Positions 3,673 to 49,206 of a stretch of DNA of 50,309 nt are shown in pieces. The translations under genes and the position numbers were made by a program. The stretch comes from Shigella phage Sfin-3. Below the pieces are notes generated by a model. The model was not told where the DNA came from and searched no databases. It saw only the letters and a list, made by a program, of their open reading frames with translations. The stretch lies in the sequence record MN296515; one strand, written 5' to 3'. Position 1 is the first letter of the stretch, and each line of letters starts with the position of its first letter.

Positions 3673-3712
3673 CACGAATTGCTAAAACGTCGGTGGGGTG
3701 ATTTGATATAGT
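3670..3712 (+). promoter_or_regulatory. composite promoter module (TAGCA-cgaat-TGCTA, 22 nt, -10 TATAGT)
   Basis: Palindrome 3670-3684; -10 3707-3712; ATG 3745. Confidence 0.55.
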
Positions 3713-3744
3713 TACCTCATCGACAACGAAGAGAGAAAATCGAA

Positions 3745-5480: not shown

Positions 5481-5500
5481 ATGCCTGCAATATGGTAAAA

Positions 5501-5515
5501 TAGCACTAAATGTTA
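5501..5515 (+). promoter_or_regulatory. degenerate palindrome copy (TAGCA-ctaaa-TGTTA) without 22-nt-spaced -10
   Basis: Sits between terminator 5460-5480 and TerS start; only TATATT 11 nt downstream. Confidence 0.35.
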
Positions 5516-12187: not shown

Positions 12188-12208
12188 CACAAAAACACTT
12201 TGACGCTT

Positions 12209-12223
12209 TAACAAAAAGTGCTA
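12209..12223 (-). promoter_or_regulatory. orphan palindrome copy, antisense to late operon
   Basis: Minus-strand reading TAGCA-ctttt-TGTTA; no - strand gene downstream; adjacent to terminator 12232-12257. Confidence 0.35.
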
Positions 12224-12231
12224 TTATTGAA

Positions 12232-12257
12232 GCCGTGAACATAATCACGGCTTTTTT
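12232..12257 (+). terminator. rho-independent terminator
   Basis: 7-bp stem GCCGTGA/TCACGGC, loop acataa, then T6. Confidence 0.7.
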
Positions 12258-12278
12258 ATTAACTACGGAGAAGTAATC

Positions 12279-15934: not shown

Positions 15935-15973
15935 TCTGTAAAATCATCGTATCAAGTTTGCACTATTCTCTTT

Positions 15974-15988
15974 TAACAAAAAGTGCCA
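15974..15988 (-). promoter_or_regulatory. orphan palindrome copy, antisense to late operon
   Basis: Minus-strand reading TGGCA-ctttt-TGTTA between tail tube and chaperone genes; 22 nt then TACGAT on minus strand. Confidence 0.35.
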
Positions 15989-22130: not shown

Positions 22131-22178
22131 CGCCTGTATAATGAGTCCACCGATAAATAGCACAAAAAGGTAAACATC

Positions 22179-29660: not shown

Positions 29661-29694
29661 AAAAATCCCCGCATTGCGGGGATTTTATCATTTG
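29661..29694. terminator. bidirectional terminator between convergent ssb and tail fibre genes
   Basis: TCCCCGC-att-GCGGGGA flanked by A5 upstream and T-rich downstream. Confidence 0.65.
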
Positions 29695-31472
29695 GACTTC
29701 AACATTTTTATCTCTTCTTGTAACTCTTCAACTTTCTTTATTGTATCCTGTAAAGCTCTCATAGTGTCAAGCAATAAAGGAGTTGTATCAAGCTCAAGCC
29801 TTTCAACTTTTGGCCCGTTTAGCTCGTGGCTCTCATACATCCTTCTCTTAACATATAGATTGTCGATCTCTTCTATCTCCTGAGCTATAACACCTCGCCT
29901 TACCCTTTCTTGCTCATCATCGTTAAAGATAAAGTTCCTAAATCTCATTGATTTTATGTTGTTGTATGCAATGCTTGATTCATCATCCTTTATGCTGTGC
30001 TTTATATTTCTGTCAGATGCCGGAATCTGTTGGAAACTTCCAGCCCCTTGCTGTCCAACGTAAGATATTTGCCCTGAAGCCATAAACCTGAAATGCATTT
30101 GCAAACCAATATTGCCTTCCCCATCCCTATCTTGAGCGCCTACTGATATTTGTGCCCTGGGCCATTCAGGATTGCCCGTAGTCATCATGCCAAAAGCTAC
30201 GCCGCCAACATACCCTTGACCCCTTGTATCACACGATCCAGAAATAAGTGATTGATAGTTTTCAGCGCCACTATCGGCGGTGTAAGCATTACCCTGGAAG
30301 CATGAAGCAGACCACATCTGGTTATAACCCATAGTTGTTTTCTGGCATAAAAACTGATTGGCTCTGAATCTATTATTAGTCTCGAAGTAGTTTGGTCCCT
30401 CATAAAATAATAAAGTCCCAGCATAACCATTATCGCTATGTTCTTTTCTGACGTAAATCCCTGGCGAGGATATTCCATCAGGTGACATAATCATCAATGA
30501 TGACAACATGGACTGACTACCCCAGTTAGAACCGTTCCATGAGTTCCTTCCTGCACCTATAGCCCCCGTGGTGTTAATAGTAAGAAAGTTAGCAGCATCA
30601 TTTTCACCTAACCCAATATTTTTTCTTGACTCTTTTTTATCCTCAAGACCAGCCAAGTTTCCATCCTTAGTTAAAAGATTTTCAGCATTGATGCTGTTAG
30701 CTGCGTCTTTAGCTTCTTGAGCACTTACCGCAGCAGCATCTTTTGAGCTTACCGCTTCGTCACGTGCTGCCTGAGCGTCGTTTTTTGCAGAGGTAGCCGT
30801 TTGTGCTGCCGTTTGAGCGTCATTAACGTAACCTGACAGATCGCCTTTCGCGTCATTAATTGCCTGAATCGCCGCCGCTTCTTCTGAGTCAATGTGAGTG
30901 ATGGATGAATTTTCTTTTTGCTGCACATCGGTTATAGCCTGATCCTTAGCCGCATTGATGCTACCGACAGCACCGTCAACAATCTGTTGCGTCTGATTCT
31001 TGATTGAGTTAGTTTCATCGCGTGCAGCGTTGGCTGCGTCACGCGCTAATTCAGCCTGATTTTGCGCAGCTTGAGAATCAGATTTCGCCTGATTCACATC
31101 AGCAACTATTTGCTCAAGTTTATTCATATCAAGCTGATTTATCAGATCTATAGCTGCCGCGATCTCAGTCTCTTTGCTTTGATAGTATCGAAGCGTCTCA
31201 GCAACGTTTTGAGCTAATCCGTTAACAGTCAACGAATCGTTAAGCAGGATCACATACTTACCGTCAGCGGCAGTCTGACCATCCGTAGAGATAGCCTTTA
31301 ATTCTGTATCACTAACGATATCGCTAATCACAGCCAGCTTAATTGGTTGCTCAAGGAACACGATAGTTGCACCTACGCGAATAAGAGCAAGCTGATCTTT
31401 CCATTTTGTATCGGTTCCGTGAACCGTTCCGTCTGCATCCATTGATGCAGTACCGCGTCTGTATAAAGCCAT
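29688..31472 (-). CDS. tail fibre protein with C-terminal intramolecular chaperone (peptidase S74-like) domain
   Basis: 594 aa; central Ala/Gln/Asp-rich coiled coil; C-terminal SDRNIK...RRGVIAQEIEEI...LDT pattern of auto-cleaving chaperone domains. Confidence 0.75.
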   Translation of the reverse strand: MALYRRGTASMDADGTVHGTDTKWKDQLALIRVGATIVFLEQPIKLAVISDIVSDTELKAISTDGQTAADGKYVILLNDSLTVNGLAQNVAETLRYYQSKETEIAAAIDLINQLDMNKLEQIVADVNQAKSDSQAAQNQAELARDAANAARDETNSIKNQTQQIVDGAVGSINAAKDQAITDVQQKENSSITHIDSEEAAAIQAINDAKGDLSGYVNDAQTAAQTATSAKNDAQAARDEAVSSKDAAAVSAQEAKDAANSINAENLLTKDGNLAGLEDKKESRKNIGLGENDAANFLTINTTGAIGAGRNSWNGSNWGSQSMLSSLMIMSPDGISSPGIYVRKEHSDNGYAGTLLFYEGPNYFETNNRFRANQFLCQKTTMGYNQMWSASCFQGNAYTADSGAENYQSLISGSCDTRGQGYVGGVAFGMMTTGNPEWPRAQISVGAQDRDGEGNIGLQMHFRFMASGQISYVGQQGAGSFQQIPASDRNIKHSIKDDESSIAYNNIKSMRFRNFIFNDDEQERVRRGVIAQEIEEIDNLYVKRRMYESHELNGPKVERLELDTTPLLLDTMRALQDTIKKVEELQEEIKMLKSK

Positions 31473-31493
31473 AGCGTAAACTCCTTAAGTAAA

Positions 31494-31508
31494 TAGCACG
31501 AATTGCTA
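31494..31508. promoter_or_regulatory. palindrome copy in operator position at tail-fibre promoter
   Basis: TAGCA-cgaat-TGCTA lies between the predicted TSS of the - strand sigma70-like promoter (31516-31544) and the tail-fibre RBS. Confidence 0.45.
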
Positions 31509-31515
31509 AACACAG

Positions 31516-31544
31516 ATTTTATCATTGTGCTATTGGTCTTGCAA
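31516..31544 (-). promoter_or_regulatory. sigma70-like promoter for tail fibre gene (TTGCAA-17-TAAAAT)
   Basis: Minus-strand -35 31539-31544, -10 31516-31521; palindrome 31494-31508 begins at predicted TSS. Confidence 0.5.
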
Positions 31545-31550
31545 CGGGCA

Positions 31551-31574
31551 ATAAAAAACCGCCCGAAGGCGGTT
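31551..31574 (-). terminator. minus-strand terminator after primase gene
   Basis: Minus-strand reading AACCGCC-ttcg-GGCGGTT followed by T6. Confidence 0.6.
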
Positions 31575-32508
31575 ATAGTAGGTCACTTGCTGAGAATAAC
31601 TTAGCTTGCATTCCTGAACGGTATCCTCCAGGATTCGGGATGATTATTTTTAATTGCCGGTCGTCAGCCATGTATAAAGTCTCCTTATCTGAAGGTTCGC
31701 ACGCCACTCTTACCTCGCGATCTCCTTTGTATCTGTACGCAACCATTTCGAGATTTTCAGGAGTGAAGCAGGCCCACACCTCTTGCTTTGTGTGAAATGC
31801 AATATGCTGAGCATCAATCCAATTAAGGCATAAGTAGATCGCTTTTTCAGTTTTACCAGTCACGGCAACCGAGCAACTTGTGTATTTCTTAGCGTAAAAT
31901 GACTCCCTTCCTTCCTCATCAATAATCAAAATATTGCAAAATTCATCATCAAGACCGTCCTCGTGTACAAGTTGACATGGTATGGTGTGAAATACGCTCT
32001 CGCCGCCATCCTCGCGACGTTTTACGCCAACGTCGAATGATTCGGTTGGTAGCGACTCAAACATGCTTAGAGGCGTGTTTACGCGCTTCTCTGTACGCTC
32101 CATGACTTTCATCACTGCCTCATGGTCTGCCATCATGACGTTTACGCCAGCTACCGGAGTGCGGCGCGCTTTCTTATTTGCCTTGACAATGTACTCCTGC
32201 GGAACTTTTCCGAGGAATCTCCCCAAGATGTTTATGCATTCGCTGTACGGCATACCAGTTAATTTCATCAACCAACCGATCCCGGAGTCATTGCCGCATG
32301 AGTTACAGATCGCACCGCCGTCTCCCGGAGTGTTTAGGTTGTCAGTCCAGCGAAAACGGTCTTTGCCGCCGCAGTTAGGGCAAGGCTGGTGCTTCTTGTT
32401 GAATACCTCGTTCGGTAATCCGCAGACGGACTGGAACGCATCGCGCCATAACCCCTTCATATACGGCAATACGTCCTCTTTCTGAAACATCATAAATTCT
32501 TCGTTCAC
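31573..32508 (-). CDS. DNA primase (zinc-ribbon + TOPRIM-like)
   Basis: 311 aa; CPNCGGKDRFRW...CNSCG zinc ribbon then acidic IIDEEG / EDGLDDEF motifs; GTG start 32508 with GGAG RBS (ATG 32493 alternative). Confidence 0.6.
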   Translation of the reverse strand: MNEEFMMFQKEDVLPYMKGLWRDAFQSVCGLPNEVFNKKHQPCPNCGGKDRFRWTDNLNTPGDGGAICNSCGNDSGIGWLMKLTGMPYSECINILGRFLGKVPQEYIVKANKKARRTPVAGVNVMMADHEAVMKVMERTEKRVNTPLSMFESLPTESFDVGVKRREDGGESVFHTIPCQLVHEDGLDDEFCNILIIDEEGRESFYAKKYTSCSVAVTGKTEKAIYLCLNWIDAQHIAFHTKQEVWACFTPENLEMVAYRYKGDREVRVACEPSDKETLYMADDRQLKIIIPNPGGYRSGMQAKLFSASDLL

Positions 32509-32568: not shown

Positions 32569-33021
32569 TTAACTAAAAATGCTATTGGTCGTTCCGATAT
32601 CTTCCTTCTTGACAACTCGCATAAACTTCTTGTTTTTGCAGCGCTTCTCAAGGCACTTGCCGTTCCCATCAAACTTCAGATCGAATCGCAGCCATGCGGC
32701 CCGAAATCCTTTGCAACCCTGTCGGCGATAAGCACGATGCGCCGCTTCAGCGCCTTGCCAGGAAATCATATTTCGATCCTTCCACCCTTGAACCGTCTGG
32801 TTGCTAACTTTCAGAGCCTTTGCGCAAGCCGCCGGACCACCATAATATTCAATAAGAGCATCCAATCGCGCTCTCAGTCCTGCGCGCGTTTCTTCTTTAT
32901 GGATATAAAATCCGCAGCGCTGGCGAGGCTTTTTATCTTTACCGCGTCGTGTTCCGTTGTTACCATTGATGTGACGTTTATCGATTTCACCAGTAGACTC
33001 TGCGATACGCTTCATATTCAT
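32569..33021 (-). CDS. Cro/YdaS-like HTH DNA-binding protein
   Basis: ATG 33021 with GGAGA RBS (track start 33093 would overlap the promoter); central ...ACAKALKVSNQTVQGW...RFDL resembles YdaS/Cro-type HTH; basic N-terminus. Confidence 0.5.
   Translation of the reverse strand: MNMKRIAESTGEIDKRHINGNNGTRRGKDKKPRQRCGFYIHKEETRAGLRARLDALIEYYGGPAACAKALKVSNQTVQGWKDRNMISWQGAEAAHRAYRRQGCKGFRAAWLRFDLKFDGNGKCLEKRCKNKKFMRVVKKEDIGTTNSIFS
32570..32584 (-). promoter_or_regulatory. degenerate palindrome copy (TAGCA-ttttt-AGTTA) at 3' end of Cro-like gene
   Basis: Encodes the C-terminal NSIFS* of the Cro-like protein; followed on minus strand by terminator 32522-32559. Confidence 0.3.
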
Positions 33022-33034
33022 ATTAATTCTCCTG

Positions 33035-33077
33035 TAGCACTTTTTGCTAAAAACGTTTACTGTATGCCGTGTATTAT
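33035..33077 (+). promoter_or_regulatory. composite promoter module for helicase operon (TAGCA-ctttt-TGCTA, 22 nt, -10 TATTAT)
   Basis: Palindrome 33035-33049; -10 33072-33077; GTG 33116; palindrome is also in the 5' leader of the divergent Cro-like gene. Confidence 0.55.
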
Positions 33078-33101
33078 ATCGTAAACGATACAACGATTCA
33101 A
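33073..33101 (-). promoter_or_regulatory. sigma70-like promoter for Cro-like gene (TTGAAT-17-TATAAT)
   Basis: Minus-strand -35 33096-33101, -10 33073-33078; its -10 overlaps the + strand -10 (33072-33077) of the helicase promoter. Confidence 0.55.
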
Positions 33102-33115
33102 AGGATTAAATAGCC

Positions 33116-35547: not shown

Positions 35548-35587
35548 CACTTTTTGCTAAACATGCCGGAATGGATTCTGGCATTAT
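35545..35587 (+). promoter_or_regulatory. composite promoter module (TAGCA-ctttt-TGCTA, 22 nt, -10 CATTAT)
   Basis: Palindrome 35545-35559; -10 35582-35587; ATG 35615 (dam). Confidence 0.5.
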
Positions 35588-35614
35588 TATCTCACTGAAA
35601 CGAGAGGATTAAAA

Positions 35615-36576: not shown

Positions 36577-36610
36577 TTGCTAAAACTACCCGGCGAAAGT
36601 CGGGTATAGT
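36568..36610 (+). promoter_or_regulatory. composite promoter module (AAGCA-ctaat-TGCTA, 22 nt, -10 TATAGT)
   Basis: Palindrome 36568-36582; hairpin 36588-36605; -10 36605-36610; ATG 36643. Confidence 0.55.
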
Positions 36611-36642
36611 TATTTCATCAAAACGAAATGAGGAATAAGAAG

Positions 36643-46233: not shown

Positions 46234-46433
46234 TCCAATAGTTGCTCATTATTCCACCAGTAATGGAATATCTGGAATAATTGCGATCCCGATTGATCTC
46301 GAATGATGAAATGTGATTGTTGCATGATGTGCAACTGTTGATGTGATTGTTGCTTGGAATGCAATGATTGTGAGAGGGAGGATTTAGTGTTACCCGGTTC
46401 GCCTGGTAGTCATCTCCATTTTTAGCAAAACGT

Positions 46434-46448
46434 GCTATCGATTACACT
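46434..46448 (-). promoter_or_regulatory. palindrome copy (TAGCA-cgttt-TGCTA) without evident -10
   Basis: Minus-strand orientation in intergenic region B; no TATAAT-like hexamer at 22-24 nt. Confidence 0.35.
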
Positions 46449-46754
46449 TTAACTTGTCACGACTGTAATATTTGTCTAGAATCGCACTTGTGACAAAATT
46501 ACGCACTGTGACGCATAACAATAGACATGTAGATATATGTATATATATAATATATATAGTGTTTTTTTATTTATATATATAGATAATCATATTGTAATGG
46601 TTGTGTATAGCCGTCTTACATTGTCTAGCGTACTGTTGGCATATTTCTATCTGCATGTTTATATATACAGTACTTTTTTGAGAGCCATATATTTCTATAT
46701 GGACCCTAGACAGCTAGACAAATGTTACACAGCTTAAAATTGGCTCGCAGGCAT

Positions 46755-48115: not shown

Positions 48116-48155
48116 CACGAATTGTTAAAACAGGATCGGGGTATCTTGCTATAGT
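48113..48155 (+). promoter_or_regulatory. composite promoter module (TAGCA-cgaat-TGTTA, 22 nt, -10 TATAGT)
   Basis: Palindrome 48113-48127; -10 48150-48155 inside hairpin 48138-48161; ATG 48194. Confidence 0.55.
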
Positions 48156-48193
48156 TACCCCATCAAAACGAGATACCAATCAGAGGATTCACC

Positions 48194-49176: not shown

Positions 49177-49206
49177 AACCCCATCGATAACGAACGAGGA
49201 TTTATC

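Follow-up and report, generated by a model that had tools for sequence, protein, structure and literature searches.

The lateral tail-fibre gene of Shigella phage Sfin-3 (sequence record MN296515) may be controlled by an operator placed over its own transcription start. In the stretch that we analyzed, the whole 50,309 nucleotides (nt) of which are called the window below, the gene follows a conserved promoter of the host type, and an inverted copy of a 21-nt repeat lies across the predicted start. From the arrangement of its sequence, this copy is best read as a putative operator. Our best explanation, to which we give a probability of about one half, is that a phage protein binds there, most likely the regulator Pir, and lowers or delays tail-fibre transcription. 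By analogy with known systems, this would be a start-site operator for a dual-function phage regulator, an ordinary regulatory design.

Nucleotide comparison of the 3.7 kb around the site gave 96.5% identity to Shigella phage Sfin-1 and 91-94% identity to T1, Shfl1, ADB-2, and other Tunavirus members of the Drexlerviridae; by this comparison, the window is that of a Tunavirus, a T1-like phage. Gene identities were obtained by mapping Sfin-1 proteins onto the window. The features around the tail-fibre start are the following:

29688..31472, - strand: lateral tail-fibre gene, 594 amino acids (aa), with a C-terminal Peptidase_S74 intramolecular-chaperone domain; annotated in relatives as tail fibre or lateral tail fibre
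31481..31486, - strand: Shine-Dalgarno (SD) sequence AAGGAG, from reading the sequence
31491..31511, + strand: full 21-nt repeat copy aaaTAGCACGAATTGCTAaac (core 31494-31508), at about -2 to +19 of the predicted start and inverted relative to the gene
31516..31524, - strand: extended -10 element, with TG (31524-31523), a, and TAAAAT (31521-31516), from reading the sequence and from conservation
31539..31544, - strand: -35 hexamer TTGCAA, matched at 4/6 positions, with a 17-nt spacer to the -10
31557..31574, - strand: intrinsic terminator of the primase gene, AACCGCC-TTCG-GGCGGTT followed by T6, from a terminator scan
31576-32493, - strand: primase gene, from Sfin-1 protein mapping

Along the - strand, the primase stop codon is followed in order by the terminator, TTGCAA, 17 nt, TGaTAAAAT, ctgtgtt, TAGCAATTCGTGCTA (31508-31494), tttactt, AAGGAG, and the ATG at 31472; TAGCAATTCGTGCTA reads TAGCACGAATTGCTA on the + strand (31494-31508). 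With the predicted +1 set 7 nt past the -10 (31509), this palindromic core spans about +2 to +16, with its centre near +9 and the SD sequence 7-8 nt further on, and it lies 22-36 nt upstream of the tail-fibre ATG. An earlier note on this DNA had described a TTGCAA-17-TAAAAT promoter, a palindrome, and an SD sequence here. Its coordinates are all correct, and so is its placement of the palindrome over the predicted start rather than at -42. The primase terminator separates the tail-fibre gene from read-through transcription; its stem shows compensatory changes in relatives (CCGCC/GGCGG versus CCCGC/GCGGG).

A 9/12 hexamer match is by itself non-significant, as 26 were found versus 28 expected per 15 kb. 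When the score was tightened to take in the TG, the two strands of the 50-kb window gave only 17 hits, and the tail-fibre promoter is among the few that are intergenic. We accept the promoter because of its extended -10 TG, this intergenic hit, and its conservation, the last of which is decisive. In 17 non-identical relatives, drawn from Tunavirus, Badaguanvirus, Sertoctavirus, and Hafnia phage Pocis76, we find the -35 TTG, the cacaaTGnTAAAAT block, and the palindrome retained, so that promoter and palindrome both stand as conserved cis-elements; the spacer and the 7 nt that separate the -10 from the palindrome drift freely. The -35 reads TTGCAA in Tunavirus, TTGCCG in Sertocta- and Badaguanvirus, and TTGAAT in Pocis76; TG and TAAAAT are retained in all Tunavirinae relatives, and Pocis76 has TAGAAT. 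Within Tunavirus, the palindrome half-sites are invariant. Overall, conservation of the hexamers, TG, and palindrome extends through Tunavirinae and into some Tempevirinae. A promoter is annotated at the homologous position in the GenBank record of phage vB_EcoS_Chapo; the T1 record has none there. On these comparisons, the tail-fibre gene has its own conserved host-type sigma-70 extended -10 promoter, with a predicted start.

Henuseptimavirus (primase ~65% identical) has a pure extended -10 promoter, TGcTATAAT, and its palindrome, TAACAAAACGTGCTA, starts 12 nt past the -10, versus 7 nt in Tunavirinae, which puts the core at +6 to +20. This difference corresponds to half a helical turn; it fits steric occlusion and not stereospecific activation.

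Some other signals in the promoter region were set aside. A half-site, ATAGCAC, in the promoter spacer (31533-31527) varies among relatives and is probably non-functional. A CRP-like CACA-N11-TGTG around the -10 has the wrong polarity and is not conserved in T1. A 50-codon open reading frame (ORF) at 31373-31525 on the - strand, the equivalent of T1 "Orf25" (CPTT1_054), starts within the tail-fibre promoter, and its ATG provides the TG of the extended -10. Given this overlap with the promoter and a frame that is not maintained from genus to genus, we treat this ORF as probably a spurious T1 annotation.

The palindrome belongs to a larger family of sites. Exact TAGCA-N5-TGCTA occurs 10 times in the window versus 0.07 expected, and 23 times versus 1.65 expected when up to one mismatch is allowed. 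Alignment of the copies gives aaa-TAGCAC-nnn-TTG(C/T)TA-AAAC, an asymmetric element that is longer than the palindrome and has the palindrome as its core; this element is the Drexlerviridae 21-nt repeat aaATAGCACnnnTTGnTAAAA. The earlier note had called the element a palindrome, and that core is real; as a simple palindrome it is misdescribed, since the repeat is directional, and at the tail-fibre site it is inverted. With a position weight matrix (PWM) built from 19 canonical copies, the site scores 29.1 bits on the + strand versus -1.5 bits on the gene strand. Only 18 positions on both strands of the window reach at least 25 bits.

The 19 directional copies point at the downstream gene, and 17 of them have TANNNT 22-23 nt past the core (15 at 22 nt). 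Given a background of 0.0155 per position, this spacing has p ~3e-24, which upholds the claim of about 19 promoters with the element at -42. No -35 hexamer is found at the right place in these promoters; instead, the core spans -49 to -35, centred at -42. They serve small early-region genes, replication and recombination genes, and the leftward operon, and not the structural block. Class II activators bind in this way, with CRP and FNR at -41.5 and lambda CI at -42 of PRM, and the geometry of the 19 sites is that of a site near -42 replacing the -35. The rigid spacing would be expected if stereospecific contact with RNA polymerase requires it, as in class II activation, and it argues for a role in initiation rather than elongation.

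We also observed that a strong GC-rich hairpin encloses the -10 in its loop or abuts it in canonical modules, with z < -2 in 15/19 and a mean z of -3.5 versus shuffles. Examples, each covering the 42 nt 3' of the repeat, are 323-364, 3685-3726, 35560-35601, 36583-36624, and 48128-48169. Each site has its own stem sequence. These hairpins might mark where read-through RNA has its 3' end or is processed, or else they might work as DNA.

The repeat was described in phage TLS as a 21-nt "direct repeat" (DR) found at 21 places and was said to be present in T1, Rtp, and Rogue1 (PMC11447400). The authors offered a stoperator, an enhancer, or a UP-like element as possible functions and counted the matter among the unanswered questions (PMC11447400). 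The tail-fibre copy shares its core, TAGCACGAATTGCTA, with TLS DR2, DR5, DR13, and DR15, and like them it is intergenic and falls in the "G" (GAA) subgroup. It differs in placement. TLS copies run along transcription, ~76 nt 5' of start codons (PMC11447400), whereas the tail-fibre copy is not oriented along its downstream gene, does not lie ~76 nt upstream of the start codon, and is centred near +9 rather than near -42. What it does overlap is the -10 to +20 region of the predicted start. This inverted polarity is kept in every relative that carries the copy. Unlike Sfin-3, TLS has no repeat copy at its tail-fibre gene.

An inverted copy might serve a promoter of its own, and the tail-fibre copy could then be the upstream element of a + strand repeat-dependent promoter making RNA antisense to the 3' end of the primase gene, with any effect on the tail fibre being incidental. 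The copy has the full directional consensus (29.1 bits), with TGcTATTGG exactly 22 nt downstream, the canonical spacing, and there is a possible parallel at the tape-measure-chaperone gene, where an inverted copy has a good - strand TTGaTACGAT at 22 nt that is conserved in T1. Yet we found no conserved TANNNT at 22-23 nt on the copy's own (+) strand. The hexamer at 22 nt, TATTGG, lacks the T at -7 and is replaced in relatives by ATACCT, TATCCG, TATCAG, CACCTG, or CATGAG; Henuseptimavirus has nothing at the canonical own-strand spacing. Nor does the copy have a hairpin of the kind seen in 15/19 canonical modules (z +0.5) or a plausible ORF downstream on the + strand. With neither a valid own-strand -10 nor a hairpin, the tail-fibre copy is not a canonical promoter module; we rejected the antisense or divergent promoter, and regard this explanation as very improbable.

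The palindrome could also act as RNA, in the form of a stem-loop at the 5' end of the tail-fibre mRNA, with an effect on stability or translation. It would lie 1-2 nt from the predicted 5' end and 7 nt from the SD sequence (4 nt in Henuseptimavirus), and a 5-bp stem is present in the minimum-free-energy fold. The 5' untranslated region, however, folds no better than shuffled sequence (z -0.02). The stem is broken at the half-site G in Henuseptimavirus (TAACA...TGCTA) and SRT8 (TACCA...), at a position where canonical DNA copies also tolerate a TAACA/TGTTA variant, and no compensatory changes are seen in it. An Rfam search returned only sub-threshold noise. We therefore rejected an RNA hairpin, to which we give hardly any weight.

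A third alternative is that the copy is a polar roadblock, resembling a stoperator, against read-through from the primase gene, or else a neutral relic. The stoperator analogy was raised for the repeat by the TLS authors (PMC11447400), the copy stands in a transcribed intergenic region, and some relatives do without it. A strong conserved terminator already lies upstream, though, and the half-sites are invariant while adjacent bases drift, which argues against neutrality. Moreover, a roadblock would hinder the gene's own promoter too, so that this reading merges with that of an operator. Either a roadblock or a relic seems improbable to us.

A start-site operator for a repeat-binding protein would work as follows. 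The strong terminator would cut the tail-fibre gene off from the pir-primase transcript, and host sigma-70 would drive its transcription from TTGCAA-17-TGaTAAAAT. As the inverted, full-strength copy lies across the predicted start, inside the RNA polymerase footprint, a protein bound to it would be expected to occlude polymerase or block promoter escape, and tail-fibre transcription would be lowered or delayed. The binding protein would most likely be Pir, which has a Cro-fold helix-turn-helix (HTH) with a conserved basic N-terminal arm. Binding of Pir to the repeat, repression at the tail-fibre position, and the consequence for timing are steps that we infer.

The arrangement resembles several known systems. 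At lac O1 (centre +11), as at the tail-fibre site (centre ~+9), the operator lies in the polymerase footprint 3' of a sigma-70 promoter; unlike lac, the tail-fibre site shows no sign of auxiliary operators, looping, or an inducer. Lambda CI and P22 C2 at OR activate PRM from a site centred at -42, and the same protein represses PR. Likeness to lambda, P22, and Cro extends to an HTH dimer, a pseudo-palindrome of ~15-17 bp, activation from -42, and repression at the core promoter or start, which is here predicted; the divergent pir/helicase arrangement with overlapping -10 hexamers, described below, is also lambda- and P22-like. In contrast to lambda and P22, the phage is virulent or pseudolysogenic, and the site is reused ~25 times genome-wide as single sites rather than cooperative triplets. 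Pir also differs from Cro-type proteins in having extra conserved N- and C-terminal regions. The stoperators of mycobacteriophage L5 share with the repeat their many asymmetric copies, short intergenic locations, and consistent polarity. Unlike those of L5, which act on elongation in lysogeny, the Drexlerviridae copies hold a rigid 22-23 nt to the -10, which is promoter geometry.

T1-like phages are very common. To our knowledge, the Drexlerviridae encode neither an RNA polymerase nor a sigma factor, and next to nothing has been established about their gene-expression programme. Placement at -42 of promoters without a -35, versus placement overlapping the footprint at structural promoters, is a candidate explanation for early-versus-late control, and the tail-fibre copy is the cleanest case of the latter. 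The 21-nt repeat (in TLS) and the dual activity of Pir (in T1) were already known; what is added here is the inverted start-site placement and the -42 geometry. Together, the tail-fibre operator and this geometry would help to explain a repeat whose function was left open. The geometry also links, in a testable way, the paper on the TLS repeat (PMC11447400) with that on Pir (PMC6737242).

The pir gene lies a short way upstream on the same strand as the tail-fibre gene, and it shares a repeat copy with a divergent operon:

32572-33021, - strand: pir gene, the orthologue of T1 Orf23 (150 aa; annotated "transcriptional regulator"; 97% identity to T1 Orf23)
33035..33049, + strand: repeat copy shared by pir and helicase, at -42 of the helicase promoter (TATTAT 22-23 nt on) and at about +18 to +32 of the pir promoter TTGAAT-17-TATAAT, relative to which it is inverted
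from 33116, + strand: helicase-led replication operon, divergent from the - strand genes, from Sfin-1 protein mapping

Laganenka et al. (2019) renamed Orf23 Pir and fused up to 150 bp upstream of start codons to gfp (PMC6737242). The promoters assayed were hol, dam, pir, recE, and orf65; the binding site was not defined, and Pir was framed as a lysogeny-lysis regulator (PMC6737242). In these fusions, Pir acts as an activator at dam and hol and as a repressor at recE and at its own promoter (PMC6737242). The earlier note had supposed one factor that both activates and represses, and such a phage regulator does exist, as the T1 reporters show for Pir with dam up and pir down (PMC6737242). We inspected the T1 reporter fragments for repeat copies. 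The dam fragment has a canonical -42 copy, and the pir fragment has an inverted copy 3' of its sigma-70 promoter. These two promoters offer a direct experimental precedent for both signs of regulation in the proposed geometry, with P_pir, where the copy is inverted and lies downstream of the start, as the closest analogue of the tail-fibre site. The tail-fibre promoter (orf26) was outside the set tested in the T1 study (PMC6737242).

Pir itself has features of a DNA-binding protein. Over its 150 aa, the Sfin-3 orthologue is 97% identical to T1 Orf23, and it carries a weak P22_Cro/YdaS HTH signature and belongs to a PHROG "transcriptional regulator" family. A sequence search against PDB chains gave nothing meaningful. 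The AlphaFold2 (AF2) model, with a predicted local distance difference test score (pLDDT) of 81, has a core that matches the all-alpha dimeric Cro of Xfaso 1 and N15 in a fold search (probability 0.99-1.0; TM 0.7 relative to the target). Pir homologues were found in 821 phage records of the collection searched. In T1, TLS, and Vibrio phage Vc1, the three full genomes checked for both, the repeat is unchanged and each encodes a Pir homologue. The most conserved part of Pir across the Drexlerviridae is the predicted-disordered N-terminal basic arm, STGEIDKRxINGNNGTRRGKDKKPR, and not the HTH; its invariant residues are G11, D14, R16, N19-G23, R26, G27, D29, and R33.

The pir/helicase region deserves a separate description. 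Its divergent arrangement is conserved in T1, TLS (DR11/P57), and Vc1. Within 33035-33102, the two -10 hexamers (TATAAT on the - strand and TATTAT on the + strand) overlap at 5/6 positions, and an 8-bp inverted repeat (ACGTTTAC ... GTAAACGa) flanks the promoters. On this layout, the region looks like a built-in either/or switch under one repeat copy. The earlier note had treated the copy at this "Cro-like gene" as an operator. It does lie downstream of the pir start, but it is not purely an operator, as the same copy is the -42 site of helicase.

A number of observations weigh against a Pir-bound operator at the tail-fibre start. TLS, Vc1, and two uncultivated relatives have no tail-fibre copy, so that it is dispensable. 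We looked for transcriptomes or transcription start maps of T1-like phages in the searchable literature and found none. HTH helix 3 of Pir is divergent in Vc1 and in the Jhansiroadvirus group while the repeat is unchanged, which weakens the simple model in which the HTH reads TAGCA. The Pir-responsive T1 hol and recE fragments have no copy at up to 3 mismatches; hence, effects of Pir on reporters need not go via the repeat. If the same protein activates early or middle genes, something would later have to relieve a perfect-consensus operator at a structural gene. Lastly, the T1 orf65 promoter, which was reported to be Pir-independent (PMC6737242), bears a perfect TAGCACGAATTGCTA at -42, with the same GAA-centred core as the tail-fibre copy.

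This last point raises the possibility of the same operator mechanism with another factor, in which Orf65 (1928-2371; 87% identical to the T1 protein) or another early protein binds the repeat or its GAA-centred class. In the T1 reporters, Orf65 activates its own promoter independently of Pir and represses the pir promoter (PMC6737242), where the copy lies 3' of the start, and the tail-fibre core is identical to that of the orf65 promoter. Orf65 homologues, however, were found only in close Tunavirus relatives; for TLS, whose genome has 21 copies of the repeat, the match is partial and weak. No DNA-binding domain could be recognised in Orf65, which also lacks Pfam hits and resemblance to Pir, and we dropped any judgement of it as a DNA binder from structure, its AF2 model being unusable (pLDDT 50). 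The central triplet of the tail-fibre copy also differs between relatives (GAA, TAA, TAT, AAT, or GTT), so that the GAA class is unlike a conserved specificity determinant. We consider Orf65, or another early protein, the less likely choice, though still a serious one. Because Orf65 is narrow in distribution, lacks a DNA-binding domain and a usable model, and would depend on an unconserved triplet, Pir is the candidate that we favour as the repeat-binding factor, at slightly better than even odds.

The tail-fibre and pir copies are not the only ones with operator-like placement. The earlier note had counted the tail-fibre site as the second such case, which understates their number, as further copies lie at structural-gene promoters:

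5493..5515, + strand: terS promoter TGgTAAAAT with repeat copy TAGCACTAAATGTTA (5501-5515) over -7 to +8; identical in T1, absent in TLS
12200..12227, + strand: major-capsid promoter TTGACG-16-TATTAT, whose spacer is filled by an inverted copy (12209-12223); conserved in T1, where the promoter is annotated, and in TLS (DR7)
15974..15988, - strand: inverted copy just 5' of the SD sequence of the tape-measure-chaperone gene; conserved in T1
22158..22172, + strand: degenerate or half copy TAGCACaaaaaGGTA between the TATAAT and the SD sequence of the J-like tail-tip gene; equivalent to TLS DR8

Operator-like placement thus recurs at structural-gene promoters, at varied positions that would be non-activating.

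These copies suggest a wider scheme, in which one Cro-like protein, Pir, and a directional repeat would make up the whole temporal programme. At -42, Pir would be a class II activator of ~19 non-structural promoters, and the copies within the tail-fibre, terS, capsid, tape-measure-chaperone, and J promoters would hold those genes back. Autoregulated Pir would then be titrated by ~25 sites per replicating genome, leading to release. Release would begin with the weaker operators (terS, tape-measure chaperone, and J) and come last to the perfect tail-fibre operator; if true, this order would suit a low-copy, late-assembling fibre. As an account of the whole programme, we find the scheme doubtful.

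Structural-gene promoters with operator-like copies typically lie directly 3' of terminators. At the capsid promoter (12200-12258), a terminator hairpin follows immediately and the predicted start lies inside it, an arrangement kept in T1 and TLS. The inverted tape-measure-chaperone copy (15939-15988, - strand) has its own extended -10, TTGaTACGAT, at exactly 22 nt; the T1 equivalent is TTGaTAAGAT, conserved despite a diverged spacer. From this sequence, a possible antisense promoter would run into the 3' end of the major-tail gene. Structural units also typically open with the T-run of a terminator, followed ~6-10 nt later by a -10 of the TGTATAAT or TGTAGAAT type and no -35, as at ~22133-22145, upstream of 19993, and at the T1 and TLS equivalents. 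This terminator-then-promoter layout matches the "transcripton" layout that was reportedly proposed for T1.

Further recurrent elements accompany the repeat. A conserved box, CATCGAnAACGA, is found past the -10, at or near the predicted start of canonical transcripts (e.g., 3717-3730 and 49180-49195), and also in Vc1. The sequence ACCAATCAG(G)AG recurs directly 5' of start codons. In a half-genome of Vc1, the commonest 9-mers are ACCAATCAG (12 times) and CAACGAAAC (8 times); the repeat itself is no commoner than these. Finally, a perfect, top-scoring repeat copy (30.9 bits) without a -10 at the canonical distance lies at 46423-46437 (- strand), within the AT-rich early control region. It stands ~17 nt 5' of the -35 that belongs to a sigma-70-like promoter on the + strand, TTGTCA-17-TAGAAT (46454-46482).

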